DNA from: an uncultured Lachnospiraceae bacterium
GTDB lineage: Bacteria > Bacillota > Clostridia > Lachnospirales > Lachnospiraceae
Direction of reading: 5' to 3'
Length of the DNA: 64,000 bases
Assembly (NCBI GenBank): GCA_947644545.1
Contig: CANRZW010000018.1
Coordinates: 1,266 to 65,265 of the forward strand
The notes beneath the pieces are model-generated. The model was not told the DNA's origin. It saw only the letters and a program-made list of their open reading frames with translations, and did not search any database. Within the stretch, counting starts at the first letter, position 1. Each line of letters begins with the position of its first letter. Of the stretch, positions 17,977 through 61,714 are shown piece after piece. The position numbers and the translations under genes were made by a program.

Positions 17977-18000
17977 AAATTGTCGGAGACAGGGAAGCCG

Positions 18001-20620: not shown

Positions 20621-22133
20621 GGATGAGATATTGATCAGAGAGGGGCTTTGTAAATTGATGGAAAAGATGTTTCCTGAAATTGTGATCACGGGTACTGCCG
20701 GCAATGGACAGGAAGGACTTCTTTGTATCGAAAGAGAGCATCCGGATCTGATCATTACTGACATCAAAATGCCGATCATGGATGGACTGGAAATGATCGC
20801 CAAAGCGCAGGAATCAGGGATCTTCCCGAAGATAATTGTTTTGACCGCTTACTCGGAATTTTCCTACGCCCAGCAGGCTGTCAAACTGGGGGTAAATGAT
20901 TATATCATCAAACCTGTGGTTATTCAGGAATTTGTCCAGACAATTCGGAAGGTACAGAATCTGTATGAGCAGGAACAAAAAAGGACGCCGGATACAATGG
21001 GAAGCCTGGAAAATGTAATATCCGGCGTTTTATATGGAACTTCCTCATTGGACAAGGAAGTGGAAAGTTTTCTGGATAAGAAATATGGAATTGCAAAAGA
21101 TACTCCGCTGATCGAATTGCTTGTCTATCTGGGAGATAGTTATGAGGCAGAGAGGGAAAGAAAACGGAATGAACTGTGTCAGATATTAAGGCAGAAAGAA
21201 GTAAAGTACTGTCTGGCAGACATGGAATATGATAAAGCAATTCTGGCATTGGTCTATGACTATTCGTCCAGACAGGATATAGAACGATGGTATCAAAATC
21301 AGATTCTATTTCAAAGCAGGGGACAGCGGAAGCAGAAAGTCAGCTATGGCATGCTGGAAGTATCCGGAGTGTGTGAGGTCAGGGATGGATATCAGAAGCT
21401 TCTTCCCTATATGGATTGGAATATTATTTTAGGGGCGGATGTTTTAATATCATATCCTCATATAGCGGATATTCAGTCAGAAGTCTGTATTTATCCGGTG
21501 GAACTGGAAACGCAGATCAAGGCGGCAATCTGCATGGGAGAATATGAAAAAGTGAGGGAGATTTACAGGAAGTTCCACAGTTATTTCCTCAACGGACATG
21601 TTTATTCACCGAAAGAGATAAAAGAATCTTATGTACGTTTTGAGTGGTCTGTTTTAAATATTGCAAAAGAGGTTGGCTGCATTGACCATAAAGACATTGA
21701 TCAAAAAAGACTTTTGGATTCTGTCATGAATGCAAAGACAGAAAATGAGCTGGAAAGGACTTTTGAAGAAATACTCTGCCGTATGAATGTCTCTGATCAT
21801 GAAACAGGTGCAGTAAGCCTTGCCGTTAAAAAGGCACAGAGTATGATCCATGAGTTTTATGCGGATGGAATTACATTAAATGAAATTGCCGACAGGTTAA
21901 ATCTGACACAGGAGTATCTTGGCACTCAATTCCATAAGGAATTAGGTGAAAATTTCAGTACTTATATTCGCAGTTACCGTCTGGCAAAAGCAAAAGAGAT
22001 GCTGATAGGAACACAGTTGAAGCAATATGAAATATCGGAAAAAGTGGGATATGCCGATGCGAAGTATTTTGCAAGAGTATTTAAAGAATGTGTCGGTATG
22101 TCGCCTGCAGAGTACAGAAAATCTAATCGCTGA
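20601..22133 (+). CDS. YesN-type response regulator with AraC-family HTH output
   Basis: Receiver domain (AVVIEDEILIREGL, DLIITDIKMPIMDG) and a C-terminal AraC HTH (GYADAKYFARVFKECVGMSPAEYR). Confidence 0.9.
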   Translation: MKAVVIEDEILIREGLCKLMEKMFPEIVITGTAGNGQEGLLCIEREHPDLIITDIKMPIMDGLEMIAKAQESGIFPKIIVLTAYSEFSYAQQAVKLGVNDYIIKPVVIQEFVQTIRKVQNLYEQEQKRTPDTMGSLENVISGVLYGTSSLDKEVESFLDKKYGIAKDTPLIELLVYLGDSYEAERERKRNELCQILRQKEVKYCLADMEYDKAILALVYDYSSRQDIERWYQNQILFQSRGQRKQKVSYGMLEVSGVCEVRDGYQKLLPYMDWNIILGADVLISYPHIADIQSEVCIYPVELETQIKAAICMGEYEKVREIYRKFHSYFLNGHVYSPKEIKESYVRFEWSVLNIAKEVGCIDHKDIDQKRLLDSVMNAKTENELERTFEEILCRMNVSDHETGAVSLAVKKAQSMIHEFYADGITLNEIADRLNLTQEYLGTQFHKELGENFSTYIRSYRLAKAKEMLIGTQLKQYEISEKVGYADAKYFARVFKECVGMSPAEYRKSNR

Positions 22134-22274
22134 ACAGACATGGCAGATTTATGTGATCAGCTTAGATTATTTATCCTTTTTCACTTTTTTACCGTTTTGG
22201 AAAGGAATAGAAAGCAGTATGATGGATGCATCAAGAGGAACATAAACATATAAATGGTTTGAAGGAGGAAAGTA

Positions 22275-23582
22275 ATGAAAAGGAAAAAATTAATCGCATT
22301 ATTTGCAGTTTTAACAATGACTGCAGGTTTGATCACAGGATGTGGAACCTCAGGAAATACCGAAGAGTCCGCAGCATCAGTTGACGAAGGAGCAGCAGGT
22401 GAAGAAACAGCAGTTGATGAAGGAGCAGCTGAGGAGACTGCATCGGAAGCAGAGCCTGCCGGTGAAGCAGAGGCAGTAACGATCTGGTATTATTGGGAGA
22501 CAGAAGGCCATCAGGTTGCATTGGATCAGGTCATCCAGGAATATAATTCGTCACAGAGCAACTATGAAGTTTCGGCTAAGTATGTACCGTTTGCAGATTT
22601 TAAGAAGCAATTATCCATTGGCGCATCAGCAGATGAACTGCCGGATATTGCCATCCTGGATTCGCCGGATCATGCATCTTATGTGGAAATGGGCATCTTT
22701 GAGGATATAACCGGAAAATTCGATGTTGGAAATTATTATGAAGGAACCGTAAACTCCTGTACAGTAGATGATAAGCTGTATGGCGTACCGTTTGGGGTAA
22801 ATTGTCTGGCACTGTACTATAATGAGGATATGCTGAGTGCAGCAGGCTGTGAAGTTCCCACCACATGGGATGAATTAATGACTACGGCAAAAGCACTGAC
22901 AACTGACAGTGTTACGGGACTTGCGCTTTGCAGTGTACAGAATGAAGAAGGAACATTCAACTTTGTTCCATGGCTTTGGTCAACAGGAGCCACTTCTTAT
23001 GATATTAATAATGAAAATGGCATCCGGGCTTTGTCGTTCATTCAGAGTCTGATCAATGAAGGAGTTATGAGCAAGGAATGTATCAACTGGACGCAGGGCG
23101 ATGTTATGAACCAGTTTATCGCGGGGAATGTGGCAATGATGGAGAATGGACCATGGCAGATTCCGACCATGCAGTCAGAGGCTCCGGATCTGAACTGGAA
23201 AGTAACATTGATTCCTAAGGATTCTGAATATTCTTCTGTACTCGGAGGAGAAAACTACGCAGTGATCAGCGGCGGAAACGTAGAAGGAGCCTTGGATTTC
23301 CTGACTTATGCGACATCTGAAGAGCAGGTAAAATTCATGATGGATAAATTCGGGTATATTTCTGCAGACAAGACAATTGCAGCAAATCAGTTTGCAGCAG
23401 ATTCTCCTTACCAGCCGTTTGTTGAAGAACTGAATTACGCAATGCCGAGAGGCCCGCTGGCTGAATGGCCGAGCGTATCTGATGCAATTTCACTGGCATT
23501 CAATCAGGTGATTACGGGAACGGCAACACCAGAAGATGCGGCAGCAGAGGCTCAGGCAACAATTGACGGTATCGTAAAATAA
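22275..23582 (+). CDS. Sugar ABC transporter substrate-binding lipoprotein (CUT1 family)
   Basis: Lipobox LITGCG, an acidic linker, then an SBP_bac_1-like body (WYYWETEGH..., GENYAVISGG). Confidence 0.88.
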   Translation: MKRKKLIALFAVLTMTAGLITGCGTSGNTEESAASVDEGAAGEETAVDEGAAEETASEAEPAGEAEAVTIWYYWETEGHQVALDQVIQEYNSSQSNYEVSAKYVPFADFKKQLSIGASADELPDIAILDSPDHASYVEMGIFEDITGKFDVGNYYEGTVNSCTVDDKLYGVPFGVNCLALYYNEDMLSAAGCEVPTTWDELMTTAKALTTDSVTGLALCSVQNEEGTFNFVPWLWSTGATSYDINNENGIRALSFIQSLINEGVMSKECINWTQGDVMNQFIAGNVAMMENGPWQIPTMQSEAPDLNWKVTLIPKDSEYSSVLGGENYAVISGGNVEGALDFLTYATSEEQVKFMMDKFGYISADKTIAANQFAADSPYQPFVEELNYAMPRGPLAEWPSVSDAISLAFNQVITGTATPEDAAAEAQATIDGIVK

Positions 23583-23593
23583 AAATGCAGGAT

Positions 23594-23645
23594 AGCTGCC
23601 ACGCAGAGGGTTACACGATATATTCTGTGTGGCAGCTGTTTTTAT
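23594..23645 (+). terminator. Stem-loop/attenuating terminator between the SBP and permease genes
   Basis: agctgccac ... gtggcagct forms a 9-bp stem followed by gtttttat. Confidence 0.6.
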
Positions 23646-23666
23646 ACCTTAGAGGGAGGTGTTTTC

Positions 23667-24566
23667 ATGAAGAAAATTAAGAGGATGTTCCGATATGAGA
23701 ACGTAGGAATATTGTTTGTTTTCCCGGCGTTTCTATATATGCTGGTCTTTGTCGGTTATCCGATTATACGTAATATTATTTTAAGTTTTCAGGATGTGAG
23801 TGCAGGTAATCTTGTTCGCGGAACAAAAAGTTTTATCATGTTCGATAATTACTCAGCGCTTTTTCATGACAGTATTTTCAGGACTTCATTATCCAATACT
23901 CTTCGCTATACGATCTTATGTCTGGTTTTTCAGTTTATGATTGGATTTATCCTTGCACTTTTCTTTAATCAGAGGTTTGCATTAGCAAAGCCGATCAGAG
24001 GAATTTTGCTGGCGCCATGGATGATACCGGTTACGGTTACTGCGTTAATGTTTAAACTTTTGTTTGCAACTGACATTGGTGTTATTAATTATATTTTGAG
24101 AAGCCTTCATTTAATCAATAAAAATATTGAATGGCTGACTACTCCGGGAACGGCTATGTTTGCCCTGATCTGTGCAAACGTGTGGATTGGGATACCGTTT
24201 AATATGATACTGATCTCAACCGGTCTCACAACAATTCCAAAAGAGCTGTACGAGAGCGCGTCTATTGATGAGGCCAATAAGGTACAGACGTTCTTTAACA
24301 TTACGCTTCCGTTATTAAAGCCAACGATTGAATCAGTGTTGATTCTTGGCTTCATTTATACTTTTAAAGTATATGATCTTGTATATGTTATGACAAGCGG
24401 CGGCCCGGTCAATTCAACGCATATGTTGTCAACGTACTCTTATAAGCTGTCATTTGAAATGTTTAAGTACAGTAAGGGTTCTGCTGTTGCCAATGTACTG
24501 CTGCTAATATTGCTGGTGGTTGGCATTTTCTATATTAAAGTTACAACAGGCGGGGAGGAAGAATGA
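23667..24566 (+). CDS. Sugar ABC transporter permease (MalF/UgpA-like)
   Basis: Six predicted TM segments and an EAA-type loop (LYESASIDEANKVQTFFNITLPLLKP). Confidence 0.9.
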   Translation: MKKIKRMFRYENVGILFVFPAFLYMLVFVGYPIIRNIILSFQDVSAGNLVRGTKSFIMFDNYSALFHDSIFRTSLSNTLRYTILCLVFQFMIGFILALFFNQRFALAKPIRGILLAPWMIPVTVTALMFKLLFATDIGVINYILRSLHLINKNIEWLTTPGTAMFALICANVWIGIPFNMILISTGLTTIPKELYESASIDEANKVQTFFNITLPLLKPTIESVLILGFIYTFKVYDLVYVMTSGGPVNSTHMLSTYSYKLSFEMFKYSKGSAVANVLLLILLVVGIFYIKVTTGGEEE

Positions 24567-25414
24567 TGGATGGGGAAAAGAGATTAACAAGAAAAAAGAA
24601 TATTTTGTTTAGTGCGGCTTCGGTAGTGATTCTGTGCGTCCTTCTGTTTCCGCTTTACTGGGCGCTTATTACCTCATTGAAAACAGAACAGGAGATATTC
24701 CAGAATCCGCCGACGTTCTATCCGCATATTCTCAATTCAAAATCTTATGCGGCGCAGGTGGAAACCGGAGATTTTAACATGTTTCGTTCCTTTGCGAACA
24801 GTTTTCTGATATCCATCGGCGCAACTGTAATTGCGGTTTTGCTGGCGGTGCCGGCTTCTTATGGGATCGCAAAGTATCACTTTAAGGGCAGAAAAGTCAT
24901 GCTGCTGTCATTTTTGGTCACACAGATGCTTCCGGTATCAGTACTTTTAACACCCATGTTTATCATGTTTAAAAATATGTATGTATATAATACATGGATC
25001 GCGGCTGTACTGGCGGATGCAACAATAGGAATCCCTTTCTCGGTACTGATATTGAAGAATTATTTTTCATCAATACCAAAAGATTTGGAGGAGGCTGCTT
25101 ATCTGGATGGATGTAATAAGTTTACCGCATTTATCAGAATACTGATCCCGATTGCAAAACCGGGTGTTATGGTCTGTGCAATCTTTTCTTTTCTTTATGC
25201 ATGGGGGGATCTGGCCTACGGAATGACATTTATTCTGGATCAGGAAAAACGTCCGATTACGGCTGGAATTTTTAACTTTATGGGTCAGTATGGAACAAAA
25301 TGGAGCTACCTGACAGCTTTTGCAGTAGTGACCATTATCCCGGTGGCATTAATATTTATTTTTATGCAGAAGTATATTGTAAGCGGTATGACAAGCGGTG
25401 CAGTTAAAGGATAA
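24563..25414 (+). CDS. Sugar ABC transporter permease (MalG/UgpE-like)
   Basis: EAA loop DLEEAAYLDGCNKFTAFIRILIPIAKPG. Overlaps the upstream stop by 4 nt. Confidence 0.9.
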   Translation: MMDGEKRLTRKKNILFSAASVVILCVLLFPLYWALITSLKTEQEIFQNPPTFYPHILNSKSYAAQVETGDFNMFRSFANSFLISIGATVIAVLLAVPASYGIAKYHFKGRKVMLLSFLVTQMLPVSVLLTPMFIMFKNMYVYNTWIAAVLADATIGIPFSVLILKNYFSSIPKDLEEAAYLDGCNKFTAFIRILIPIAKPGVMVCAIFSFLYAWGDLAYGMTFILDQEKRPITAGIFNFMGQYGTKWSYLTAFAVVTIIPVALIFIFMQKYIVSGMTSGAVKG

Positions 25415-44024: not shown

Positions 44025-44339
44025 ATGGATCAACATATTAAAAAAGTGTACGTTCCTATGACGGAAACTGCTTTTTTCATTTTACTGTGTCTACGAAAAC
44101 CTAATCATGGATATGGTATTGTTCAAATGGTTGAAAAAATGACAGACGGAGCTATCAGACTTACACCCGGCACGATGTACGGGAGTTTATCAAAAATGGA
44201 AAAAGACAATGTAATCCGTTTTATTCGTGAAGAAGATAAGCGAAAAATCTATCAAATCACGAATTTAGGGCTAGAAGTCTTACAGCTTGAACGGAAACGA
44301 ATTGAACGCTTATATAAGATAGCTCAGGAGGAAATGTAG
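44025..44339 (+). CDS. PadR-family transcriptional regulator
   Basis: LLCLRKPNHGYGIVQMVEKMTDGAIRLTPGTMYGSLSKMEKDNVI is a PadR winged helix. Confidence 0.88.
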   Translation: MDQHIKKVYVPMTETAFFILLCLRKPNHGYGIVQMVEKMTDGAIRLTPGTMYGSLSKMEKDNVIRFIREEDKRKIYQITNLGLEVLQLERKRIERLYKIAQEEM

Positions 44340-44340
44340 A

Positions 44341-44877
44341 ATGGAAATCAAAAATCAATTCAAATGGTTTACAATATTTGAATATGAAAAAGAACAGGAT
44401 TATTTGCGGGAAATGCACAAGTCAGGTTGGAAATTTGGTAAGGTAACGGGCCTGGGAATGTACCATTTTGAAAAATGCCTTCCGCAGGATGTGGTCTATC
44501 AACTGGATTATAACAAAGACGGACTTGCAAATAAAGATGAGTATTTGAAAATGTTTGATGACTGCGGTTGGGAATACATACAGGATTTTTTTGGTTACAG
44601 TTATTTTAGAAAAGCTGTTTCTGACGATGGTATAGCAGAAGAAATTTTTTGCGATGATGAATCAAGACTTCAGATGATGCAACGGGTATTAAGAGGAAGA
44701 ATGTTGCCGCTGTTAATTATATTTTTTCTCATACTATTGCCGCTGTTGATTACCAACTTGTTTGACACGCACAATTATTTTATAGCTGCATTTGTTGGTG
44801 GTGTTTTAACCATGTACATTATGATATTCGTTACATTCTTTGTGAAATATAGTCAGTATAAGAGCAACAGAAAATAA
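44341..44877 (+). CDS. DUF2812-like membrane protein (usual PadR partner)
   Basis: FEYEKEQDYLREMHKSGWKF plus two C-terminal TM helices, adjacent to padR. Confidence 0.65.
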   Translation: MEIKNQFKWFTIFEYEKEQDYLREMHKSGWKFGKVTGLGMYHFEKCLPQDVVYQLDYNKDGLANKDEYLKMFDDCGWEYIQDFFGYSYFRKAVSDDGIAEEIFCDDESRLQMMQRVLRGRMLPLLIIFFLILLPLLITNLFDTHNYFIAAFVGGVLTMYIMIFVTFFVKYSQYKSNRK

Positions 44878-44943: not shown

Positions 44944-45117
44944 TTAGTTAAAGTTGTCGATGCAGGGCTGGAACATATCCTTGGTTACGCCGCAAAGAGG
45001 GCAGCACCAGTCAGCCGGCAGATCTTCAAATGCTGTGCCGGGCTTGATGCCGTGCTCCGGATCACCCTTTTCAGGATCATATGTATAACCACAGGGATTG
45101 CAGAAATATTTATTCAT
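44944..45117 (-). CDS. rd: Rubredoxin (57 aa; absent from the supplied ORF track because it is under 60 aa)
   Basis: My translation is [57 protein letters not shown]. It carries CxxCG and CPxCG knuckles. SD GGAGGA lies 8 nt upstream. Confidence 0.9.
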
Positions 45118-45300
45118 GAGTAGTATCCTCCATTTTATGATATAGTCTGTTCGTATCTGTCTGTAATTTTGTCAATGTAACTGCGCATCTGATCATTCGG
45201 CCAAACGTAAATGGCCGTTAACATGGCAGTTATATAGAAGTGAGCAGACAGTCATTGAGACTTACCGGAACAATAACTGCCTGCTGTTCCTGCCTGATGA

Positions 45301-45840
45301 TTAGCCGAAGTATCTCTTTAAGAGACCTGCAAAAGCCTTGCCATGACGAGCCTCGTCGCGGGCCATCTCATGAACGGTGTCATGGATCGCATCAAGGTTA
45401 GCAGCTTTAGCGCGCTTAGCCAGATCGAACTTGCCTGCCGTAGCGCCGTTCTCAGCTTCTACTCTCATCTCCAGATTCTTCTTGGTGGAATCTGTTACAA
45501 CTTCGCCGAGCAGTTCTGCAAACTTAGCAGCATGCTCTGCCTCTTCCCATGCAGCCTTCTCCCAGTACAGACCGATCTCAGGATAGCCTTCTCTGTGTGC
45601 AACTCTTGCCATTGCAAGATACATACCTACCTCTGTGCACTCGCCGTTAAAGTTAGCGCGAAGGTCAGCCATGATGTCCTCGCTGACACCCTTAGCAACG
45701 CCTACAACGTGCTCAGCAGCCCATTCCATCTCGCCGCCCTGTGCAGTGAACTTCTCAGCAGGCGCATTACATACCGGACATTTCTCCGGAGCAGCATCTC
45801 CCTCGTGTACATAGCCACATACCTGACATACAAATTTCAT
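45301..45840 (-). CDS. rbr: Reverse rubrerythrin (N-terminal rubredoxin-like CxxC...CxxC, C-terminal ferritin-like diiron domain)
   Basis: [14 protein letters not shown]...CPVCNAP, followed by ExxH diiron motifs ([20 protein letters not shown]). The start is likely ATG at 45840, after aggaga. Confidence 0.88.
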
Positions 45841-45974
45841 AATCATGTTCTCCTTTTCTTTTTGAAATATATTGTAAGACATTACATAGAAAATATGCTT
45901 GTCTTAGTTCGCAATCTTATAATTTATAATACGACCTGGCAGGAGGTTAGCCATAAGTCAATTTGCCTTGCAAA

Positions 45975-46358
45975 TTAACTTTCCCTGCAGTCACCACAGA
46001 TTCCGTGGAAATAAGTGACATGTCCCCGGATCTCTCCGTCAAAACTTCGACCTGCCAGATCCATGATATGATCGAGGCTGTCCATTCTCAAGTCGATGAT
46101 CCGCCCGCACTGGGTGCAGACAAAATGGTAATGAGCGGAAGTATCCGCATCAAAATGATCAACACCGTCGTCGAAACGCAAACGCTGTATCTCACCGATA
46201 TCCGCAAGTAAAGAAAGATTGCGGTATACAGTGCCGAGACTGATATTAGGATATTCATTTCGGACATTCATATATACCGTATCGGCAGTCGGATGATCTT
46301 TGCGAGTCATCAGGAAGTCCTTGATCACTTGTCTTTGTCTGCTGTATTTGAGTGCCAT
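45975..46358 (-). CDS. perR: Fur-family regulator, PerR-like
   Basis: HPTADTVY...ISLGTVYRNL...HYHFVCTQCGRI...CGDC. It lies directly upstream of the rubrerythrin and rubredoxin genes. Confidence 0.85.
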   Translation of the reverse strand: MALKYSRQRQVIKDFLMTRKDHPTADTVYMNVRNEYPNISLGTVYRNLSLLADIGEIQRLRFDDGVDHFDADTSAHYHFVCTQCGRIIDLRMDSLDHIMDLAGRSFDGEIRGHVTYFHGICGDCRES

Positions 46359-46517
46359 TTCAACTCCTTAAAAATAGGAATCATTACTATTTATGAAATA
46401 AATATATCAAATATGGAAGAATCTGTCAACCATGAAAGAAATATTATTATAAACAAAGAACAGGAAGAAAATGTAGTTAGCCCCATTGATTTTAAAGCGT
46501 GGGATGAACTGTTACAA

Positions 46518-47723
46518 CTACTTAGAGTCTTCAAACTGAGATGCCATTGTGTATTTAAGTGATATCAAGGAAGTTAGTAGTAGCAAACATCCCAATACAA
46601 AAAATATTTTGTTAAGACTAACATACTCTCCAAGATAACCTACAATAATAATTCCTATAGGTCCTGATGCATAAGAAACACAACGAAATGCACTAAAAAC
46701 TCTTCCCATCATTTCTTTCGGAGTATTTATCTGCAATAAGACACCATTCATGATTGAAACAAAGCCATTTGAAATCCCATATAAAAAACCTGCTACGACA
46801 GAGAACATAATATTATGGTGAAATAGCAGTAATGCAACACCAACTCCACCAAAAGCAAATCCCATTGCCAAAAGTAAATTCATAGCTATCTTATCTTTTA
46901 GCTTTGTAAGAAGCCAAGTCCCAATTATCCCACCAATTGCTATTACTGCCATAAACACAGAATAAACATATTTATCTGCAAAGAAATTTGTAAAGTAAGC
47001 TACTGACAGAGAATCAACTGGAGAAGCAAAAAAATTTCCTAAAAAAGTTACAACCATAATGGCAGCTATTATTTTACTTGTAAAGATGAAGTGGAATCCT
47101 TCTTTCACTGTCTTAGAGAAATTCATTTTTTTTCTACTTCGTTCAAATGTCTCCGAATACTTTATAAAAAGCATTAAAAAACCTGCCACAAAAAATGTAA
47201 AAATGTCAATGATTATAGCACCGGAAATACCAATAGCAGTTATTAATGCACCAGAACCAACATAGGAAAATATTTGGATAAATTGCTGAAACATGCTATG
47301 AGATGCCCTTGCCACAATTGCATCATCATCAAAAATAAGCAATGGTAAAAGAGCGTTTTGGGCTGGTATGCTTAATGTACTAAATATTGTCTGGGCAGTA
47401 ACAAATATAATCAGTATCGGTATCGAAATATGCCCTCCTAAGTATATCAGAAGCAATATTGACAACAAAATACCCTGTCCAAATGATGTAATGATCAAAA
47501 TGTTTTTCTTATTATTGTAATCAACTATTGAGGATGTAAACATACTCACAAAGGAAAGAATCATTTTGATCGCAAAAACGTAACTGGTGATAAGGGTCGA
47601 TTCACTTACCGTATAAATAAGCATGGCAAAAGCAATATCGTCAACATAGTCACCAATTGCGTTAATGCAAGATGCTTTCCAGAAAATCCGAAAATTTCTA
47701 TTTTTCTTTAAAAGATTAATCAT
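46518..47723 (-). CDS. MFS transporter, MFS_3 (EntS/secretion-effector-like) type
   Basis: ATG at 47723 lies 7 nt after ggag. About 12 TM helices. N-terminus is NRNFRIFWKASCINAIGDYVDDIAFAMLIY. The codon usage is very A+T-rich. Confidence 0.85.
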   Translation of the reverse strand: MINLLKKNRNFRIFWKASCINAIGDYVDDIAFAMLIYTVSESTLITSYVFAIKMILSFVSMFTSSIVDYNNKKNILIITSFGQGILLSILLLIYLGGHISIPILIIFVTAQTIFSTLSIPAQNALLPLLIFDDDAIVARASHSMFQQFIQIFSYVGSGALITAIGISGAIIIDIFTFFVAGFLMLFIKYSETFERSRKKMNFSKTVKEGFHFIFTSKIIAAIMVVTFLGNFFASPVDSLSVAYFTNFFADKYVYSVFMAVIAIGGIIGTWLLTKLKDKIAMNLLLAMGFAFGGVGVALLLFHHNIMFSVVAGFLYGISNGFVSIMNGVLLQINTPKEMMGRVFSAFRCVSYASGPIGIIIVGYLGEYVSLNKIFFVLGCLLLLTSLISLKYTMASQFEDSK

Positions 47724-47844
47724 ATAAATACTCCATTCTTGCAAAAAAAGCGCAGACGAACAAACAATCAAAGAAGAGTTACATCCATCATGTCCACATG
47801 AAGCTATCCGGTCGTAATAAAGTTACTTCCGGATAGAACATCTG

Positions 47845-48873
47845 TTAACCTATATTTTTCTTTATCTTTTCTGTTATTCCATCATAGAGGCCATTATTTA
47901 TAGCTTTTTTCATAGAACAGTAATCTTTCAAATGATTTTTCCCTGTAAGATTATTATTTTCTCCATCAAAAAACCATAACCACTTAATTATTTTACAATC
48001 TTCATACCAGTCACATTCCATATTAGGACAGTCATACTTTTTATAACTTTTTCCTAATTTTTCAAATAACACCGGCGCGATTTCTTCAACATTTGATTGA
48101 TTGATTCCTATAGTATTTTCAATGTCAAGTTCGTTAAGATAATTCTTTTCTCCGCTTGCATATAATTCAGGTGAAATATATGGAAAAATCCTTATTGGAG
48201 ACACACCATAGTATTCCTTTGCTATATTCTTAACATTTTCATACAATGACTTAAGCTGATCTTCTGTAGGCGATTGAAAAGCATGGAAGGTTAATTCTGA
48301 AATAACTGGTAACATTTCAATTTTGCTATAAAAATAATCGCATATTTCTTTGAGTTTATGAAAGTATTCATTTTTGACTACTACTACAGCTGGTAATACT
48401 CTTACGTCATTATTATCAAGTGCTGCAATTTTATTGAGTGTTTCATTTGTACTTGGAACCCCCTCAGATTCATCAAAAGGATTTTCAACTGATACTAAAA
48501 AGGCTGAAATATTAGCTTTTTTAGCTTTTTCAATGATTTCGTTGTTAAGTGCCTTTCCGTTTGTTAAAACGTATGGTTTTAAACCTGTCTTAGAATGTAA
48601 ATAATTACTATAATCAAATAACTTGTCACCTATAACAAGCGGTTCTCCACCACTAAATCGAACCTGTAGTTTTTTGTGGTATTTTTGTTGAATAATTTTT
48701 ATAAGATGTACATAATTTCTAAATAATTCTTCTGGCATATCAAAATTATATTCTTGTCTGTCACGATATGCGTAATAATGACAGTATGAGCAATAACAAT
48801 TACATCTACCTGTAATAGTGATACTTAATGCCCATATATCTTCCTCTTGTAAAAAACTGTCCATATTTTTCAA
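47845..48873 (-). CDS. Radical SAM enzyme with C-terminal Cys cluster (possible SPASM/twitch-like auxiliary cluster); candidate peptide maturase
   Basis: ITGRCNCYCSYCHYY contains CX3CX2C. The GGEPL motif is present (FSGGEPLVIG). The C-terminal cluster is CPNMECDWYEDC ... C. TTG at 48873 or ATG at 48864. Confidence 0.85.
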   Translation of the reverse strand: MKNMDSFLQEEDIWALSITITGRCNCYCSYCHYYAYRDRQEYNFDMPEELFRNYVHLIKIIQQKYHKKLQVRFSGGEPLVIGDKLFDYSNYLHSKTGLKPYVLTNGKALNNEIIEKAKKANISAFLVSVENPFDESEGVPSTNETLNKIAALDNNDVRVLPAVVVVKNEYFHKLKEICDYFYSKIEMLPVISELTFHAFQSPTEDQLKSLYENVKNIAKEYYGVSPIRIFPYISPELYASGEKNYLNELDIENTIGINQSNVEEIAPVLFEKLGKSYKKYDCPNMECDWYEDCKIIKWLWFFDGENNNLTGKNHLKDYCSMKKAINNGLYDGITEKIKKNIG

Positions 48874-49112
48874 TTTTGATGTTTTGAAAACATCTGTATT
48901 CCTTTCTTTTTTTGTATTTTAGGCGTTTATGAAATGCTAGCTTTCGTAGAAATGTAGGTTTCCTTTGGATACAGAATAAAACAAATTATCACTGACCTAT
49001 GGTAAATTCGAAATATTAAAAACCAATAAACTAATATCTATCAGTAATGAGCTGTTTTTATATGGTACATACCACTCATTTTCTTTAACAGATGCTTTAG
49101 CCAATTGTCAAA

Positions 49113-49150
49113 GAAGCATCATAAGATGCAAGGCATCTTATGATGACTTC
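49113..49150 (-). other. Long hairpin between the small ORF and the radical SAM gene
   Basis: Plus strand reads gaag-catcataagatgc-aag-gcatcttatgatg-a-cttc, giving 17 paired positions with one bulge. Confidence 0.7.
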
Positions 49151-49205
49151 GTTCAATCTTTTTCTAAATACATGAATTCATACATATTAAAGGTTATAGC
49201 TATAA

Positions 49206-49295
49206 TTAAACTGTAACCTTCAAATCAAAAGAATATGCCATATATACCCGGCTATCCTGCTTTTTCATATAATTCTTTAAAAGCTGTGATTTCAT
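49206..49295 (-). CDS. Candidate 29-aa peptide ORF (MKSQLLKNYMKKQDSRVYMAYSFDLKVTV) upstream of the radical SAM gene
   Basis: GGGAGGTG lies 7 nt before the ATG. However, the ATG overlaps a near-consensus -10 box (see the next feature), so translation is uncertain. Confidence 0.3.
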   Translation of the reverse strand: MKSQLLKNYMKKQDSRVYMAYSFDLKVTV

Positions 49296-49322
49296 TATAC
49301 CGCACCTCCCTTCTTATGCCAA
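49294..49322 (-). promoter_or_regulatory. Near-consensus sigma-A promoter reading toward the radical SAM/MFS genes
   Basis: On the minus strand: TTGGCA (49322-49317), 17-nt spacer, TATAAT (49299-49294). Confidence 0.5.
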
Positions 49323-49370
49323 GGAATGTTTCGTTACCGAAGCCCCTTAACGATTGACGCGTCTTTGGCA

Positions 49371-49401
49371 TATTGACATCAAACTACATTTGATGTCAAT
49401 A
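49371..49401. promoter_or_regulatory. Perfect 13-5-13 inverted repeat (candidate operator)
   Basis: TATTGACATCAAA-ctaca-TTTGATGTCAATA read directly. It is the largest perfect palindrome I found in the window. Confidence 0.6.
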
Positions 49402-49745
49402 GTTTTGATTATTTTTTTAGTCGACATTAGAACTCGTGAAATTCTTATTTATCAAATTGTTCCTTTGTTCACTGAGGGCGTCTTCAGTTTCGCTTAATAT
49501 CCTTCTGAAAAGATGGAAAGATGAACTTTTTCACAAGGAAATATAGTCATTTTCAATATATTTTATAAATTTTTTATAAGATTATCGGATATGTTTTATT
49601 CCTTACAGCAGAAAATATGATATATTAGTTATGTATAAAAGCTTTTCTAATTTTATAGAGTTTGTTTTATATCGGGACAGAAAGGATCAACGGACTGCCG
49701 TCAGAAGCAGGCGGGAGTACTCTCGAAGAGAAAAGGGGTATTTTT

Positions 49746-54169: not shown

Positions 54170-55870
54170 TTGGCAGGGAAATGGGCGGGAAAATTGGACA
54201 GGGAAAAGATTTGTAAGAGTGTACTTAGGGCGTACTTTTTTGTAATGGCAGTCGTTTATCCTCTGTATGCGCCGGGAGGGTATCTGCGGATCGGTGAGGT
54301 CAAGTTCTTTTTCTTTCGGAATGTGACGCTTGTTACGCTGGCAGTATTGGGCGGTATTCTTGTGCTATCGGCTGTGATAAGCCGGGATAAGGACTGGATC
54401 TTACGGCATTATCTGCAGATGTCGGTTACGGACTGGTTTGTATATGGTTACTGCCTGGTGGTGATGCTGTCCTATCTGTGTTCTCCTTATAAAGAAGATG
54501 CGCTGTGGGGAGCGGAAGGCTGGTATATGGGCGTAATCAGTCAGATGATGTTTGCGCTTCTCTATTTCTTCTTTTCGCGATACTTTTGCAATAGCGATGC
54601 AGGTCTGTACGCGACGGGAGCCGATGCGGAAGGGACACAAAACAAAGGTTCCGGTGTAAGTAAATGGCTGGGCATCTGGCTTGCGGCATCGGCAGTCGTA
54701 TTTTTGCTGGGTGTCTGTAACCGGTACTCCCTGTATCCGATTGCGATGGAGGGACAGACGGAGACATTCATCTCTACATTGGGTAATATCAACTGGTTCT
54801 GCGGGTACTGGTCAATCGCGGCTCCGGTCGGGATCATGCTTTACTGGTGCAGCGAAAAGGGTGTGAAACGGGCAGCCTTGGGTGCATACAGTTTCCTGGC
54901 GATGCTTTCGGGAGTGACGCAGGGGAGCAACAGCGCCTACCTTGTTTTTCTGGCGATGCTGTTTGTGCTGCTCTTTTTATCTTTGCAGAGCGATTGCAGG
55001 TTATTCCGGTTTCTGGAGTTGTGCATACTCTTTACTGCTGCCTGTCTGACGGGACGGCTTATGCAGGAGCTGCCGGGATTATCCTTTAATTATCACAATT
55101 ATTATCCGGGGGAATGTTCGGTTATTACGGGGATCTTGATCAGCAGCGAGGTCATAGTATGGGCGCTTGGTATTTTGTTGTGCTGTTACATAGGATTCCG
55201 CGTGCTGGGAAAGCATGGCCGCCTCCATATCGAGCGTCATAAATGGCTGTGGTGCACGTTAACGGTAGCAGCCTGTCTGACAGCCTGTATCATTGTCTTT
55301 TTGATGATGCTTGACGATGAAGTAATCCGCTTTCGGGAAGTGATGTCGATGGAAAAGGGCACCTACCTGGAAGTGGTTATTGACGAAGATCTGGGAAACG
55401 GCAGGGGCGCTGCCTGGATGTGCAGTGTGGATGGCTACCGGAGGATGGATCGTGTACATAAACTCGTCGGGATCGGACCGGACTGCTATGCGGATTATAT
55501 TTATGATGTGACGGAGATTGCTGAGAAAGTAGTGGATAGGTTTGGCGATCATTTAAGACTGACCAACGCCCATAATGAGTGGCTGACGGTACTCGTCAAT
55601 ACGGGATCCCTGGGGTTATTCTGCTATGCGGGAATCTTTGCGACGGCTTTTGTGCGTTTCATGAGGAGGGCTAAAGAACAGGCATTGCTTTATGTCTGTG
55701 CGATGGCGCTTTGTACCTATACGGCCCATAATATGGTCAGTTTTCAGCAGATTCTGAGTACCCCCTATATCTTTATGGTACTTGGAATCGGCGAGGGACT
55801 GGTCAGAGTATACAGGAAGGAAAAGAAACTGCCTGAGAGCAGGGACGGCGGAGCAGGTGAGAGTGGTTGA
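54170..55870 (+). CDS. O-antigen ligase/polymerase-like (Wzy_C domain) polytopic membrane protein, paralog 1
   Basis: More than 10 TM helices. Conserved motif TNAHNEWLTVLVNTGSLGLFCYAGIF. The start is uncertain (TTG at 54170). Confidence 0.7.
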   Translation: MAGKWAGKLDREKICKSVLRAYFFVMAVVYPLYAPGGYLRIGEVKFFFFRNVTLVTLAVLGGILVLSAVISRDKDWILRHYLQMSVTDWFVYGYCLVVMLSYLCSPYKEDALWGAEGWYMGVISQMMFALLYFFFSRYFCNSDAGLYATGADAEGTQNKGSGVSKWLGIWLAASAVVFLLGVCNRYSLYPIAMEGQTETFISTLGNINWFCGYWSIAAPVGIMLYWCSEKGVKRAALGAYSFLAMLSGVTQGSNSAYLVFLAMLFVLLFLSLQSDCRLFRFLELCILFTAACLTGRLMQELPGLSFNYHNYYPGECSVITGILISSEVIVWALGILLCCYIGFRVLGKHGRLHIERHKWLWCTLTVAACLTACIIVFLMMLDDEVIRFREVMSMEKGTYLEVVIDEDLGNGRGAAWMCSVDGYRRMDRVHKLVGIGPDCYADYIYDVTEIAEKVVDRFGDHLRLTNAHNEWLTVLVNTGSLGLFCYAGIFATAFVRFMRRAKEQALLYVCAMALCTYTAHNMVSFQQILSTPYIFMVLGIGEGLVRVYRKEKKLPESRDGGAGESG

Positions 55871-57540
55871 GTAATAAATTAAGAAATAAGGACAGGGGAA
55901 GAGGAAACGGCAGAGGTTATAAGGCAAAAGAGCAGGCAGGGATAGTTCATGCAGATTCCGGGTTACTTCAAAGGATCATCGAATATCTGCTGACCGCAGT
56001 GCTGTTTGTCCTGTGTGTGGTGGTGCCATTATATGCCAGGGATGGGTATCACCAGATCGGAAATGCGAAGTTTGAAGCTTACCGCCGGATCATGCTTGGC
56101 GGTTTCGGGGGACTGCTGATCCTGGCTGTTGTATATTTAATATGGCGGACGGCAGAGCATAGGGCTATCGACAAACAGAAATTGAATCTACGGTTATCCG
56201 CTACAGACCTGTTTGTGATTGCGTATCTGGCGTTGACGGCGGTCTCTGTCGTGTCAGGCGGGTTCTATGAGGATGCGCTTTGGGGAGCATACGGCTGGAA
56301 TATGGGATTCTTGTCACAGCTTGGTTTTGTGTTGTTGTACTTGTTCTTGTCCCGCTTTGGCAAATATTATCGGACAGTGCTTGGCGTGTTATGTCTGGCG
56401 GCGACGGTCGTATTCTGCATCGGTATCCTGCACAGGCTGATGTTTGATCCCATCGGGTTCTATGACGGACTGACAAATGAACAGAAGGCGCAGTTTCTGT
56501 CTACGCTTGGGCAGGCTACATGGTACGCCTCCTTTCTGATCGTGCTGTTGCCGGTGGGAATGGGCGTGTTTCTCTATGCCAAACAGAGGACGTGGAGAAT
56601 ACTTTCCGGTATTTATATGGTGATCGGATTTGGTACGTTGGTAACACAGAACAGTGACAGCGCTTATTTTGCGCTGGCGGGTATGCTGATCGTCTTTTTT
56701 ATGGTATCCTGTGAAAAGAGAGAACTGTTGTGTCGGTTTACGGCGATGCTTACGGTGTTCTTCGGGATAGGAAAGTTGATGTATTTTCTGATGCAGATGC
56801 GGCCTAATCCGGATTTGGAACCGGATCTTATCACGGAGATTGTCTGGACTTCCGGGCTGACCTGGGGGATGTTGGTATTGTGTCTGCTTCTGACGCTGGC
56901 GCTGTATCGAACCGGGGGAGCCGGACAGAGTTTCGGATATCCCGGGACTGTGATTTCCCTGGTTCGTACAGGAGTGCTGGGACTGGCGGCGGTCTTGCTT
57001 ATCACGGCGGTGCTTGTCATTTACCTGCAGGCTCATGACCGGCTGCCGGCGGGCATTGCAGATAAAGTGGCGGCAGTCGGCTATCTGAACTGGAGCGGAG
57101 ATTGGGGCAACGGCAGAGGAAGGATCTGGGAGTTTGCCGGCAGAGTAATTTCACAGGAAAGTCTGTTACACAGGATCTTCGGGGTAGGGCCAGACTGCTT
57201 TAACAGTTATGTGACCGCTTATCACGGTGAGGAGGCGGCTCTTTTCTGGGGTAATAAGCTGCTCACCAATGCCCATAACGAATGGCTGACTATCCTGATC
57301 AATGGCGGGATTCTCGGAGCGGCGGCTTATCTGGGTATCTATGTGTCGGCAGTATATAGATTTATGCGTGGCAGAAACAATAATTATATTTTGATCGGGA
57401 TCACGGCAGCGGTCGCGGCGTATATGTGTTATAATTTTTTCTGTTATCAGCAGGTGTTGTGTACGCCCTTCGTTTTTATTTTAATGGGAATGGGAGAGTA
57501 TATTCTAAGGAATCAGAGTAATATAGAGAAAAGCAGATAG
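55867..57540 (+). CDS. O-antigen ligase/polymerase-like (Wzy_C domain) polytopic membrane protein, paralog 2
   Basis: Same architecture as paralog 1, with TNAHNEWLTILINGGILGAAAYLGIY. It shares DALWGA.GW.MG..SQ..F.LLY.F.SRF with paralog 1 and overlaps that gene by 4 nt. Confidence 0.7.
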   Translation: MSNKLRNKDRGRGNGRGYKAKEQAGIVHADSGLLQRIIEYLLTAVLFVLCVVVPLYARDGYHQIGNAKFEAYRRIMLGGFGGLLILAVVYLIWRTAEHRAIDKQKLNLRLSATDLFVIAYLALTAVSVVSGGFYEDALWGAYGWNMGFLSQLGFVLLYLFLSRFGKYYRTVLGVLCLAATVVFCIGILHRLMFDPIGFYDGLTNEQKAQFLSTLGQATWYASFLIVLLPVGMGVFLYAKQRTWRILSGIYMVIGFGTLVTQNSDSAYFALAGMLIVFFMVSCEKRELLCRFTAMLTVFFGIGKLMYFLMQMRPNPDLEPDLITEIVWTSGLTWGMLVLCLLLTLALYRTGGAGQSFGYPGTVISLVRTGVLGLAAVLLITAVLVIYLQAHDRLPAGIADKVAAVGYLNWSGDWGNGRGRIWEFAGRVISQESLLHRIFGVGPDCFNSYVTAYHGEEAALFWGNKLLTNAHNEWLTILINGGILGAAAYLGIYVSAVYRFMRGRNNNYILIGITAAVAAYMCYNFFCYQQVLCTPFVFILMGMGEYILRNQSNIEKSR

Positions 57541-58671: not shown

Positions 58672-58935
58672 ATAAAAAGTTACAGCAGTAACTTTGGTGA
58701 AATAAGGAGTAACGTGACGAAGAAGAGAATAGTACGAACAGGGAACGTGACAGAGAGAGGATGGATGGTGGAAGATCCTTACGGGAGATGTTCGGAACCG
58801 GCCTCGGAGTCCTGTGTGAGGAGCACAGCGTAGCACCGGCGATAACGGTAGGAGAAGTGGAGCGCGTAAGCGCTAATTAGGGTGGTACCGCCGAGATTTC
58901 GGTCCCTTTCGGGATGGAAATCCCGGCGTTTTTTG
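58672..58935 (+). promoter_or_regulatory. T-box leader (tRNA-sensing transcription attenuator) for proS
   Basis: AGAGA-type stem I elements (gacagagagagg, ggtggaa). Conserved T-box AATTAGGGTGGTACCGC at 58875-58891. Terminator ccgagatttc...ggaaatcccgg plus T6 (58891-58934). Pro codons (CCG, CCU) lie on the 3' side of stem I. Confidence 0.85.
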
Positions 58936-59002: not shown

Positions 59003-60433
59003 ATGGCTGACAAGAAATTAGTTGAAGCGATCACTTCCATGGAAGATGATTTCGCGCAGTGGTACACAGACGTGGTCAAGAAGGCGGAACTTCTGGACTA
59101 TACGAGCATCAAAGGATGCATGGTGTTTAAGCCGGCGGGATATGCGATCTGGGAATTGATTCAGAAGCAGATGGATGATATGTTTAAGGCGACGGGAGTG
59201 CAGAACGTCTATCTGCCCATGTTTATCTCGGAAAGCCTCTTGAATAAGGAGAAGGATCATGTGGAAGGATTTGCGCCGGAAGTGGCATGGGTGACGCACG
59301 GCGGTATGCAGCCTCTTCAGGAGCGGCTTTGTGTGAGACCTACGTCCGAGACGCTTTTCTGTGATTATTACAAAAATGTGGTGCAGTCCTATCGCGACCT
59401 GCCCCAGGTATGTAACCAGTGGTGTTCCGTTGTGCGCTGGGAGAAGGAGACGAGACCTTTCCTGCGCAGTCGTGAGTTCTTATGGCAGGAGGGCCATACC
59501 GCTCATGCAACGGCCGAGGAAGCGGAGGAAAGGACAGTGCAGATGCTGAATGTCTACGCTGATTTCTGTGAGCAGGTGCTGGCAATCCCCGTGATCAAGG
59601 GACAGAAGACGGAGAAGGAGAAGTTTGCCGGCGCTACGGCAACGTATACTATTGAAGCGTTGATGCATGACGGTAAGGCGCTGCAGTCCGGTACCAGCCA
59701 TAACTTCGGCGACGGTTTTGCGAAGGCATTCGGCATTCAGTTTACGGATAAGGACAATACGTTAAAATATGTGCATCAGACTTCCTGGGGCGCCTCTACC
59801 CGTCTGATCGGTGCGCTGATCATGGTACACGGTGACAACTCCGGCCTGGTGCTGCCTCCCAGAATCGCACCGGTACAGATTATGATTATTCCCATCCAGC
59901 AGAAGAAGGAAGGCGTGCTGGACAAGGCGTATGAACTGCGAGACAGGCTGAACGGTTTCCGTGTAAAAGTGGACGATGCGGACAAGAGTCCCGGTTGGAA
60001 GTTCTCCGAGCAGGAGATGCGAGGAATTCCGATCCGTGTGGAGATCGGGCCTAAAGATATCGAGGCGAACAAGTGCGTGATCTGCCGTCGTGATACGAGG
60101 GAGAAGATCGAGGTATCTCTGGATGAGCTGGAGACGAAGGCAGGAGAGATCCTGGAGAAGATGCAGACGGAAATGCTGGAGCGCGCCCGGGCGCACAGGG
60201 ATGCCCATACCTATACGGCAGAGAATATGGAGGAGTTCCGCAGACTGTTTACGGAGAAGTCCGGATTCGTGAAGGCGATGTGGTGCGGGGATCAGGCATG
60301 TGAGGATAAGATCAAGGAGGAGCTTGCGGTTACCAGTCGGTGTATGCCTTTTGAGCAGGAGACGATCGAGGATGTGTGTGTCTGTTGCGGCAAGCCTGCC
60401 AAGAAGATGGTTTATTGGGGAAGAGCATACTAA
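59003..60433 (+). CDS. proS: Prolyl-tRNA synthetase (short, archaeal/eukaryote-like type without the INS editing domain)
   Basis: 476 aa. Class II motifs are present ([31 protein letters not shown]) along with a C-terminal zinc-binding-like segment and a terminal ...YWGRAY. Confidence 0.93.
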
Positions 60434-60520: not shown

Positions 60521-61714
60521 ATGAATGTTTTGGTGATTAACTGCGGTTCTTCTTCCTTGAAGTATCAGCTGATCAACAGCGATTCGGAGGAAGTGCTGGC
60601 AAAAGGGTTATGTGAGAGAATCGGAATTGACGGGAGCGCGATCGTGCACCAGCCTGCGGGTGGTGAGAAGATTAAGAGTGAGGTAGACATGCCGAATCAC
60701 ACGAAGGCAGTGCAGCTGGTGATCGAGAAGTTGACAGATCCCCAGGTGGGTGTGATCTCCTCACTGGATGAGATCGATGCGGTGGGACACCGTATCGTAC
60801 ATGGCGGTGAGAAATTCGCCACTTCGGTAGTATTGGATGATGAGGTTCTGGCTGCAATCGAAGAGTGTAACGATCTGGCGCCTCTCCACAATCCGGCCAA
60901 CCTGATCGGGATCAATTCCTGTAAGGAGATCATGCCGAATGTGCCGATGGTGGGCGTATTCGATACGGCATTTCATCAGACGATGCCGAAGAAGGCATAT
61001 CTGTATGGCCTGCCATTATCCTATTATGAGAAATACAAGGTACGCCGTTACGGGTTTCACGGTACCAGCCACGATTTTGTTTCCAAACGGGCTGCGCAGC
61101 TGCTTGGTAAGGACATTAAGGATCTGAAGATCATCGTATGCCATCTGGGCAATGGCGCTTCCGTATCCGCGGTGCAGTATGGTAAGTCCGTGGATACGTC
61201 CATGGGACTGACGCCGCTTGAGGGACTGATCATGGGTACACGGTCCGGCGATCTGGATCCGGCGATTGTCACTTTTATCGCGCAGAAAGAAGGCATCAGC
61301 GCAGAAGAAGTAATCAATATCTGCAATAAGAAGTCTGGCGTGCTGGGACTGTCCGACGGTGTTTCCAGTGATTTCCGTGATCTGGGCGACGCGGCGCAGG
61401 CAGGGAATGAGGCGGCCAGGACCGCATTGGAAACATACGGTTATCGTGTGGGAAAATATATCGGTGCTTACGTGGCGGCCATGAACGGTGTTGACGCGAT
61501 CGTGTTTACGGCCGGTGTGGGAGAAAATAACGCTATGGCGAGAGAAGAAGTCGGAAAATATATCGGCTATCTGGGAACGAATATCGATCCCGAGAAGAAT
61601 AAACTGCGTGGGGAAGAAGTGATCCTGTCCGACGAAGGGGCGAAGGTCACCGTGATGGTGATTCCGACGAACGAAGAGCTTGCAATCGCGAGGGAGACCG
61701 TGCGTCTGGTATAG
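60521..61714 (+). CDS. ackA: Acetate kinase
   Basis: [34 protein letters not shown], and VFTAGVGEN. Confidence 0.96.

Follow-up and report, generated by a model that had tools for sequence, protein, structure and literature searches.

What does a lone radical S-adenosylmethionine (SAM) enzyme make when its only companions are a transporter gene and a very short open reading frame (ORF)? The question is raised by a stretch of 64,000 nucleotides from an uncultured Lachnospiraceae bacterium (the window; positions 1,266 to 65,265 of contig CANRZW010000018.1), in which a preliminary description made from the letters alone had noted such an enzyme and proposed a cassette for a peptide made on the ribosome and modified after translation (RiPP). 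We read the locus as a minimal, horizontally acquired RiPP cassette and assign a probability of roughly 0.75 to this cassette reading as a whole, its chemistry being left open; that it is a peptide-maturation cassette acting on a precursor of 29 residues is highly probable. Radical SAM RiPPs are a main source of new peptide chemistry, and the present family, referred to here as the YSTD family, matches no curated specific model (NCBIfam release 20, Pfam). No paper was found that describes the enzyme or the YSTD family, or that links a radical SAM enzyme or a RiPP to tyrosyl-tRNA synthetase (TyrRS, encoded by tyrS), whereby subscription-only papers were not covered.

A Conserved Short Gene Precedes the Enzyme Gene

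The cassette comprises three genes, which are given here in the direction of transcription:

49206-49295, minus strand: precursor gene, 29 aa (MKSQLLKNYMKKQDSRVYMAYSFDLKVTV), with the Shine-Dalgarno sequence GGGAGGTG about 7 nt before the ATG
47845-48864, minus strand: predicted radical SAM maturase, 339 aa from the ATG at 48864 or 342 aa from a TTG at 48873
46518-47723, minus strand: MFS_3/DHA-type transporter, 401 aa from the ATG or 417 aa from a TTG at 47771, with GGAG 7 nt upstream

The peptide of the window consists of a Lys-rich leader and a core, MKSQLLKNYMKKQDSRVYMA-YSFD-LKVTV, and public gene callers annotated the 29-aa ORF in the loci L170, L173, and L174. Altogether, 65 family loci were collected from genomes and metagenomes. 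In the close clade (at least 52% enzyme identity), an ORF of 24-31 aa with a Shine-Dalgarno-like site lies on the same strand about 140-420 nt upstream of the enzyme start in 14 of 14 loci, and equivalent ORFs were identified throughout the distant clade (32-44% identity) as well as on a plasmid of Caballeronia. Such a same-strand upstream ORF is present in 50 non-redundant loci from Clostridia, bacteria of the Candidate Phyla Radiation (CPR), Bacteroidota, Proteobacteria, and one plasmid. This conserved adjacent ORF supports the RiPP-like reading of the preliminary description: the gene is dedicated, conserved, and adjacent, and it encodes a leader plus a core, as is the case for a RiPP precursor that accompanies its maturase.

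All 50 non-redundant peptides have in common a Lys-rich leader and the motif [LIMCV]-[AGSQ]-Y-S-T-D. Within the motif, the Ser is kept in 49/50 peptides (the only substitute being Cys), the Tyr in 46/50 (replaced twice by Trp, once by Phe, and once by Met), the Asp in 40/50, and the Thr in 38/50. The third residue of the core, referred to as X3, is T, S, F, V, I, H, N, M, or W, and never Gly or Pro. Eight peptides terminate at the Asp, so that the conserved core motif is only four residues long. By chance, a YSTD tetrapeptide is estimated to occur in the roughly 450 upstream codon positions with a frequency of about 2e-3 per locus. As had been stated before for the candidate substrate, the window peptide has no Cys in core or leader; most family cores have none either, and one Cys stands before the motif in a PCQYSTD subgroup. 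Searches with eight precursors yielded no Pfam match and one NCBIfam match at chance level (SctY, E = 0.048, 14.2 bits against a cutoff of 70). With a core of four residues and apparently one sufficient small enzyme, the system lends itself to simple tests and might yield constrained peptides of very small size.

One locus from Micavibrio (L018) carries a YcaO cyclodehydratase gene (6982-8364) between the radical SAM gene and tyrS, and its precursor ends with ...VFYSSGITPLEPR. YcaO is a hallmark RiPP enzyme that acts on Ser, Thr, and Cys.

The Enzyme Lies Outside the Named Radical SAM Families

The enzyme ORF had been described as 342 aa at 47845-48873. It is present on the minus strand with a TTG start, but the homologues and the public gene calls use the ATG at 48864. 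The CX3CX2C site (ITGRCNCYCSYCH) and the GGEPL motif (within RFSGGEPLV) are present as reported, and toward the C-terminus the protein contains YDCPNMECDWYEDC...DYC. With numbering counted from the TTG start, C24/C28/C31, GGEPL, and C282/C287/C293/C319 are invariant in 34 aligned homologues. Because all four C-terminal Cys residues, arranged as CX4CX5CX25C, are invariant in these homologues, the site is, judged from the alignment, real and conserved and not a chance pattern. The seven invariant Cys residues would thus provide one radical SAM cluster site and one four-Cys auxiliary site.

Membership of the radical SAM superfamily is indicated by the cluster site, by GGEPL, by Pfam (Radical_SAM PF04055, 49.3 bits, cutoff 29.5; Fer4_12, 24.0 bits, cutoff 22; no other family), and by fold matches to radical SAM structures. 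No SPASM match (PF13186/TIGR04085) was obtained in the enzyme at E up to 0.01, and it has four C-terminal Cys residues, not the seven-Cys motif. The C-terminal Cys cluster of the preliminary description thus holds as an invariant four-Cys site, whereas its twitch-like nature could not be established: the twitch-type enzymes BtrN and MoaA are distant matches only, by sequence and by fold, and the four Cys residues align weakly with the CX2CX5CX3C (auxiliary cluster II) part of the SPASM motif of the anaerobic sulfatase-maturating enzyme (anSME). An N-terminal RiPP-recognition domain is absent, because the CX3CX2C site already begins at residue 24.

No NCBIfam model (release 20) was matched above its cutoff, the best scores being, in rounded figures, at most 49 bits against cutoffs of 180-720. 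The best match is the prokaryotic viperin model NF038283 (49.4 bits against 180), restricted to the N-terminal 110 residues, followed by the cyclophane-forming YhhB (NF041707, 46.9 bits against 445). Further scores were 39.8 against 349.45 for anSME (TIGR03942) and 29.2 against 425 for AmcB (NF041718); HxsC is also among the best matches, and the CteB, PapB, and SCIFF models are missed by far. The closest solved structure by sequence is anSME (E = 6.7e-9), in the radical SAM core only. A confident AlphaFold model of the enzyme (pLDDT 89.6, pTM 0.88) gave CteB, anSME, ChlB, SkfB, SuiB, TigE, and PqqE as best Foldseek matches in the PDB, with query-normalised TM scores of 0.43-0.67, and viperins rank below the peptide maturases. 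With its low NCBIfam scores and peptide maturases as best folds, the enzyme does not cluster with a characterized non-peptide family, and in agreement with the preliminary description no named subfamily can be assigned. On these profile comparisons the enzyme is outside every named family, since the tests for SPASM, triceptide-maturase, sactipeptide, anSME, and viperin membership were all negative. It had also been called unusually small; this did not hold, as the NCBIfam profiles of PapB, ACGX, ScmE, AmcB, and anSME span 330-363 positions.

Among 5.8 billion proteins, the relatives of the enzyme form 68 clusters, all of about 320-380 aa. Only 28 representatives were found below 1e-30 among 1.84 billion, and beyond these the matches are generic radical SAM proteins. 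By these searches the family is rare and sharply bounded. On 144 public contigs, chiefly from ENA and Logan assemblies, the window enzyme is encoded with exactly the same sequence; with the window cassette residing in a gut Lachnospiraceae, the product may matter in the gut ecosystem. Clusters identical to the prolyl-tRNA synthetase (ProRS) of the window likewise bear Lachnospiraceae names. The family is found in free-living Firmicutes, predatory Proteobacteria, and Bacteroidota, and also, unexpectedly for a biosynthetic cassette, in CPR bacteria with their reduced genomes.

The Transporter Accompanies the Close Clade

The transporter is assigned by Pfam to MFS_3 (73.1 bits, cutoff 27, E 2e-20) and MFS_1 (69.7 bits, cutoff 33.4, E 3e-19), which identifies an MFS_3/DHA-type pump. 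No specific NCBIfam equivalog was reached, and the 2A0121 H+ antiporter (1e-45), EntS (3e-23), and the ryptide exporter (3e-12) all remained below cutoff. Presumably, this pump exports the cassette product. An MFS_3 gene adjoins the enzyme gene in 13 of 13 non-redundant close-clade loci with enough flanking sequence, whereby the two genes mostly overlap or lie no more than about 20 nt apart; the gap in the window is 121 nt. The MFS_3 partner named in the preliminary description is thus a same-strand neighbor in the window and the close clade, but it is not family-wide: beyond the close clade the pump occurs in one distant locus only (L104), and most other members stand beside tyrS. Furthermore, a helix-turn-helix protein of about 600 aa is encoded beside the cassette in seven close-clade loci (five non-redundant), in two of which it is divided between two ORFs, each of about 300 aa.

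The Cassette Occupies a Probably Acquired Low-GC Island

The three genes and the elements around them are contained in an island with the following features:

46431-49557: low-GC island of 3.13 kb between a histidine-kinase gene and a Fur-family gene, delimited by composition profile and empty-site alignment
49371-49401: perfect 13-bp inverted repeat, TATTGACATCAAA-5 nt-TTTGATGTCAATA, candidate operator/promoter region about 75 nt upstream of the precursor ORF
49117-49145, minus strand: 13-bp stem-loop, CATCATAAGATGC-CTT-GCATCTTATGATG, 60 nt past the precursor stop codon

In the composition profile, the island has a GC content of 0.29-0.34, compared to 0.42-0.53 in the adjoining flanks and about 0.5 in most of the window. 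In the related strain L172 both flanks are joined, i.e., the histidine-kinase and Fur genes are adjacent with 78 nt between them and the island is absent. Alignment to L172 shows that the insertion takes the place of these 78 nt of the empty site. Because this empty site exists in a related strain, the island is regarded as mobile and the cassette as horizontally acquired. At the island ends, no terminal repeats, no integrase, and no transposon-like ends were detected. As had been noted, no other biosynthetic gene is present, the island holding only its three genes.

The short ORF, the palindrome, and the hairpin that had been described upstream of the enzyme gene are all there. A TTGACA hexamer stands in each arm of the inverted repeat. 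The promoter could not be established: the number of promoter-like hexamers (23, compared to 19.2 expected in shuffled sequence) is not above chance. A strong hairpin between the peptide stop codon and the ribosome-binding site of the enzyme gene is found in 20 of 21 loci checked, with differing sequences. The hairpin of the window is likely a partial terminator or an RNA-stability element that sets the precursor-to-enzyme ratio, a hairpin behind the precursor gene being the usual route by which RiPP operons obtain more precursor than enzyme. No riboswitch or T-box was found between 44000 and 52000 of the window at E up to 1. The sole T-box of the window precedes proS, 10 kb from the cassette, and the T-boxes in L008/L009 precede tyrS and not the cassette.

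Proposed Maturation and Comparison With Known Systems

In the proposed pathway, the 29-aa precursor would be transcribed at a high level, and the hairpin after its stop codon would attenuate read-through into the two downstream genes. The enzyme would bind the Lys-rich leader, and the 5'-deoxyadenosyl radical would take a hydrogen from the core [A]-Tyr-Ser-X3-Asp (Y-S-F-D in the window), whereby the single auxiliary [4Fe-4S] cluster would accept the electron released on product formation. The leader would then be cut off immediately before the Tyr by a protease encoded elsewhere, and the MFS_3 pump would export the product. Tentatively, and at somewhat less than even odds, we suggest that the modification is a three-residue cyclophane between a Tyr ring carbon and the beta-carbon of X3 (-2 Da), as in triceptides. 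A Tyr/Phe cyclophane had been suggested before, and it may well be the best of the candidate chemistries here, too. It is ranked first because the aromatic position admits only Y, W, and F, apart from one Met, and X3, though it varies widely, is in no case Gly or Pro, because the proven triceptide motifs include Y-S-K and are cleaved before the motif, and because ChlB and YhhB are among the nearest relatives. Characterized triceptide motifs follow the pattern aromatic-X2-X3, e.g., Y-S-K, H-A-S, and F-T-K, with the cut falling immediately ahead of the first motif (PMC12912966).

As a working unit, the cassette corresponds to a radical SAM RiPP system, the triceptides (XyeB, YhhB, ChlB, PauB, MicB) being its closest counterparts. 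With these it shares a short precursor, an aromatic-X2-X3 motif (here Y/W/F-S-X3), an expected cleavage just before the aromatic residue, and a lone radical SAM maturase; ChlB is among the best folds, YhhB is the second-best NCBIfam match, and Y-S-K is a proven cyclophane site (PMC12912966). In contrast to triceptide maturases, the enzyme has one four-Cys site and not a seven-Cys SPASM domain, and it reaches none of the family models (YhhB, AmcB, XyeB). The YSTD peptides also differ in that they have one motif each, followed by the conserved Asp, with the near-invariant Ser at X2.

The streptococcal radical SAM RiPPs (streptide, ryptides, and relatives, with an MFS or ABC exporter) share the order precursor, radical SAM enzyme, exporter. 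The window pump is weakly similar to the ryptide exporter, and the helix-turn-helix gene beside close-clade loci adds a regulator to the likeness. The differences are that the window exporter scores 46.5 bits against 575, that the enzyme has neither SPASM nor N-terminal recognition domain, that the core motif is unrelated, and that no regulator gene lies inside the window island. Mycofactocin and pyrroloquinoline quinone (PQQ) biosynthesis likewise start from a short peptide with a conserved Tyr near its C-terminus and use a radical SAM enzyme for the first tailoring step, and PqqE is among the fold matches. However, the YSTD Tyr is not C-terminal as in MftA, there is no Glu-X3-Tyr as in PqqA, the cassette lacks a PqqD/MftB chaperone and further pathway genes, and the family models are unmatched. 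Sactipeptides and ranthipeptides depend on a core Cys as thioether donor, which the window peptide does not have. Prokaryotic viperins differ in that NF038283 is not reached and in that the window enzyme has four invariant C-terminal Cys residues.

Several points weigh against the proposed pathway. The chemistry is inferred throughout; what is observed comprises the three genes, the conserved precursor with its motif, the hairpin, the mobile island, the fold class, and the single auxiliary Cys site. The enzyme lies below every triceptide and SPASM cutoff and has only the one four-Cys site. The Ser, the most conserved residue of the motif, is not obviously required by a Tyr-X3 cyclophane, and its conservation would agree with a reaction at Ser such as anSME carries out. 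The island encodes no protease, and the exporter is absent from most family members. Finally, as regards the link to tyrS described in the following, the adjacent TyrRS are mostly of the ordinary type of their lineage and have no distinctive substitutions in common.

Linkage of the Family to tyrS

In the distant clade, tyrS adjoins the cassette in 25 non-redundant loci (TIGR00234 above cutoff). Variants are trpS in two loci, tyrS followed by trpS in one, and two tandem tyrS genes in one (L117). The distant-clade loci with a linked synthetase come from CPR bacteria, Clostridia, Larkinella (Bacteroidota), Micavibrio, and a Bdellovibrio relative. At least five phylum-level lineages are represented, the linked genes occur in four orders or orientations, and the TyrRS are of five sequence types; in several CPR loci, the enzyme gene and tyrS share an overlap. 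Both partners, pump and synthetase gene, are missing from about ten loci. The association between cassette and tyrS is real and far beyond chance, and to our knowledge it has no counterpart in triceptide loci. It may point to an undescribed link between a ribosomal peptide and an aminoacyl-tRNA synthetase, and the gene linkage suggests the hypothesis that the product is functionally tied to TyrRS.

Three lineages of cassette-adjacent TyrRS lack the C-terminal tRNA-binding domain. These catalytic-domain-only enzymes of 303-335 aa are encoded in L021/L022 (7142-8110), L094 (5443-6405), L124 (5987-6994), and L110 (3780-4691), and an S4-like tRNA-binding domain is encoded nowhere in these loci. 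The CPR-type TyrRS has HxGR for HIGH and KMSSS for KMSKS. Of the 120 closest homologues, 117 carry KMSSS, so that this is the ordinary CPR enzyme, and close relatives of the CPR-type TyrRS have no cassette alongside. As a side observation, the CPR TyrRS (L016, L019, L102, L117, and L123; P0217-P0336) are without the second His and the second Lys of the class I signature motifs. Fusions of a B3_4 domain to TyrRS occur in six cassette loci (four non-redundant) and are widespread in Lachnospiraceae without cassette. The B3/4-domain TyrRS (L008, L009, L096-L098, and L125; P0380-P0499) is common in Lachnospiraceae and other Clostridia; the domain, which is the editing-domain fold of PheRS beta, is present in nearly all 120 closest homologue clusters, one of which occurs on 372 contigs. 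These fusions are often accompanied by an NDK/ClpS-like gene, which lies near the B3_4-TyrRS gene in L008/L009 and also in one cassette-free species (L177-L179, L182-L185). In L009 (Butyribacter intestini), the T-box leader is separated from the beginning of the B3_4-TyrRS gene by fragments of group II intron domains (8287-8955; RF02001, 150.8 bits; RF01998, 44 bits).

No substitutions common to cassette-linked TyrRS but rare in their relatives were found, nor was any linkage of tRNA-Tyr to the cassette. Two explanations were considered and rejected. The idea that the adjacent TyrRS serves as a dedicated resistance paralogue finds no general support, as the adjacent copies are mostly ordinary lineage types without common substitutions. 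Nor is there support for the aromatic core residue changing along with the type of synthetase, since the Trp cores of L106 and L176 are without tryptophanyl-tRNA synthetase (TrpRS) and the core of L015, which is linked to TrpRS, contains Phe. The second locus with TrpRS (L120) yielded no convincing peptide.

Genes for GNAT proteins occur in four loci (two non-redundant; L001/L002 and L011/L013), a P-loop kinase gene and an NDK-like gene in L008/L009, and a phosphoribosyltransferase-like gene in three loci (two non-redundant). The latter encodes a protein of about 200 aa with a phosphoribosyltransferase domain directly downstream of the enzyme (L012, 1192-1815; L108/L109, 5990-6592), with no pump or aminoacyl-tRNA synthetase there; the L012 protein has an apparent N-terminal membrane helix. 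No phage carriage of the family was found, and one match lies on a plasmid (Caballeronia pNK84), with the Trp core IMWSSDSF and neither pump nor aminoacyl-tRNA synthetase gene nearby.

Alternative Explanations

The first alternative takes the tyrS linkage as its starting point. Here, the peptide would be the scaffold for a small Tyr-derived molecule, comparable to PQQ or mycofactocin, that acts on TyrRS as inhibitor, antimetabolite, or regulator. The enzyme would cross-link or cut at the Tyr, a modified tyrosine or a Tyr-X dipeptide mimic would then be set free by proteases of the cell, and the pump (as in the window), an acetyltransferase, or the linked tyrS would protect the producer. The breadth of the tyrS linkage in lineages, gene orders, and TyrRS types argues for this, together with the overlapping genes in CPR loci, the tandem TyrRS of L117, the three lineages without a tRNA-binding domain, the GNAT genes, the occurrence of pump and tyrS as alternative partners, and the minimal core of four residues. 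It is weakened by the normality of the adjacent CPR-type and B3_4-fused TyrRS, which usually occur without a cassette alongside, by the missing common rare residue and tRNA-Tyr linkage, and by the mismatch between Trp or Phe cores and TrpRS. We consider this explanation rather doubtful, and the same holds for the idea that the YSTD peptides are the first ribosomal peptides with a product acting on TyrRS. If it were true, the radical SAM step and the removal of the leader would leave a modified Tyr at a free N-terminus, ahead of Ser-Thr-Asp, and this Tyr would imitate tyrosine or tyrosyl-adenylate and inhibit or tune TyrRS. The tyrS linkage with its domain-less copies, tandem duplicates, and CPR operon fusions would then reflect self-protection or co-regulation, and the efflux pump would serve the same role in the gut Lachnospiraceae clade.

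A second alternative keeps cassette and precursor but changes the chemistry. The enzyme would oxidize the Ser by beta-hydrogen abstraction to a formylglycine-type aldehyde (-2 Da), which could react on, e.g., by cyclizing with the Tyr alpha-amine after leader removal. This would account for the near-invariance of the Ser, whose sole substitute, Cys, is the other substrate residue of anSME. anSME is of similar size to the window enzyme, lacks an N-terminal recognition domain as well, acts on Ser or Cys in a short motif, and ranks first among the solved structures by sequence as well as among the top ones by fold (query-normalised TM 0.63-0.67); the YcaO enzyme of L018 also fits a reaction at Ser. 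The likeness to anSME, however, covers the generic radical SAM core only, and anSME has two auxiliary clusters, whereas one Cys site is present here. Its substrate is a sulfatase protein and not a dedicated peptide of 24-62 aa, and a sulfatase gene stands next to the enzyme gene in 0 of 65 loci. Ser oxidation also leaves the retention of a Tyr, Trp, or Phe unexplained, and we regard it as unlikely.

It is improbable that the enzyme is a peptide epimerase like YydG/EpeE or PoyD, which would turn one residue of the core into its D-form, so that an isobaric product results. This option had been named in the preliminary description. There are epimerases with a comparable size and locus layout, and a small radical SAM enzyme, a short precursor, and a core without Cys are compatible with this activity. 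But no epimerase was found among the solved-structure sequence matches (E up to 0.01), the best 50 Foldseek PDB matches, or the best 25 NCBIfam matches, and the conservation of an aromatic residue, restricted to Y, W, and F, speaks for chemistry at the ring.

Finally, the short ORF would very improbably be a regulatory leader peptide with the hairpin as a ribosome-dependent attenuator sensing Tyr-tRNA, and the enzyme one that acts on a small molecule (free tyrosine or a nucleotide, viperin-like) exported by the pump: the hairpin after the ORF, the link to tyrS, the viperin model as best NCBIfam match, and the kinase and NDK-like genes of L008/L009 would suit it, but it is unlikely because there is just one Tyr codon in many of the peptides and because conservation is as strong for Ser, Thr, and Asp as for Tyr; moreover, a motif at the C-terminus is not required of attenuation leaders, no alternative antiterminator pairing turned up, none having been searched for, the viperin score is far below its cutoff with peptide maturases matching better by fold, and the NDK-like gene accompanies B3_4-TyrRS even without a cassette.

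Further Features of the Window

Immediately downstream of the island, and on the strand of the cassette, a Fur-family regulator, a rubrerythrin, and a rubredoxin are encoded in a row (44944-46358, minus strand). They form an oxidative-stress cluster of the host, and the island is inserted just upstream of the Fur gene. Next to this row lies a pair of genes for a PadR-family regulator and a DUF2812 membrane protein (44025-44877, plus strand; GC about 0.35-0.37), which is absent from the related strain L172, where other genes occupy the place. The T-box leader of the window (58711-58910, plus strand; 97 bits against a gathering score of 93) stands directly upstream of the prolyl-tRNA synthetase gene (59003-60433, plus strand), which is followed by an acetate kinase gene (60521-61714). 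At 54170-57540 (plus strand), a tandem gene pair encodes paralogous membrane proteins, both of about 560 aa, that weakly match Wzy_C (O-antigen ligase-like); an APH-family phosphotransferase gene follows. A second low-GC stretch extends over 18000-25000 (0.39-0.45 against about 0.50) and may be another acquired region.

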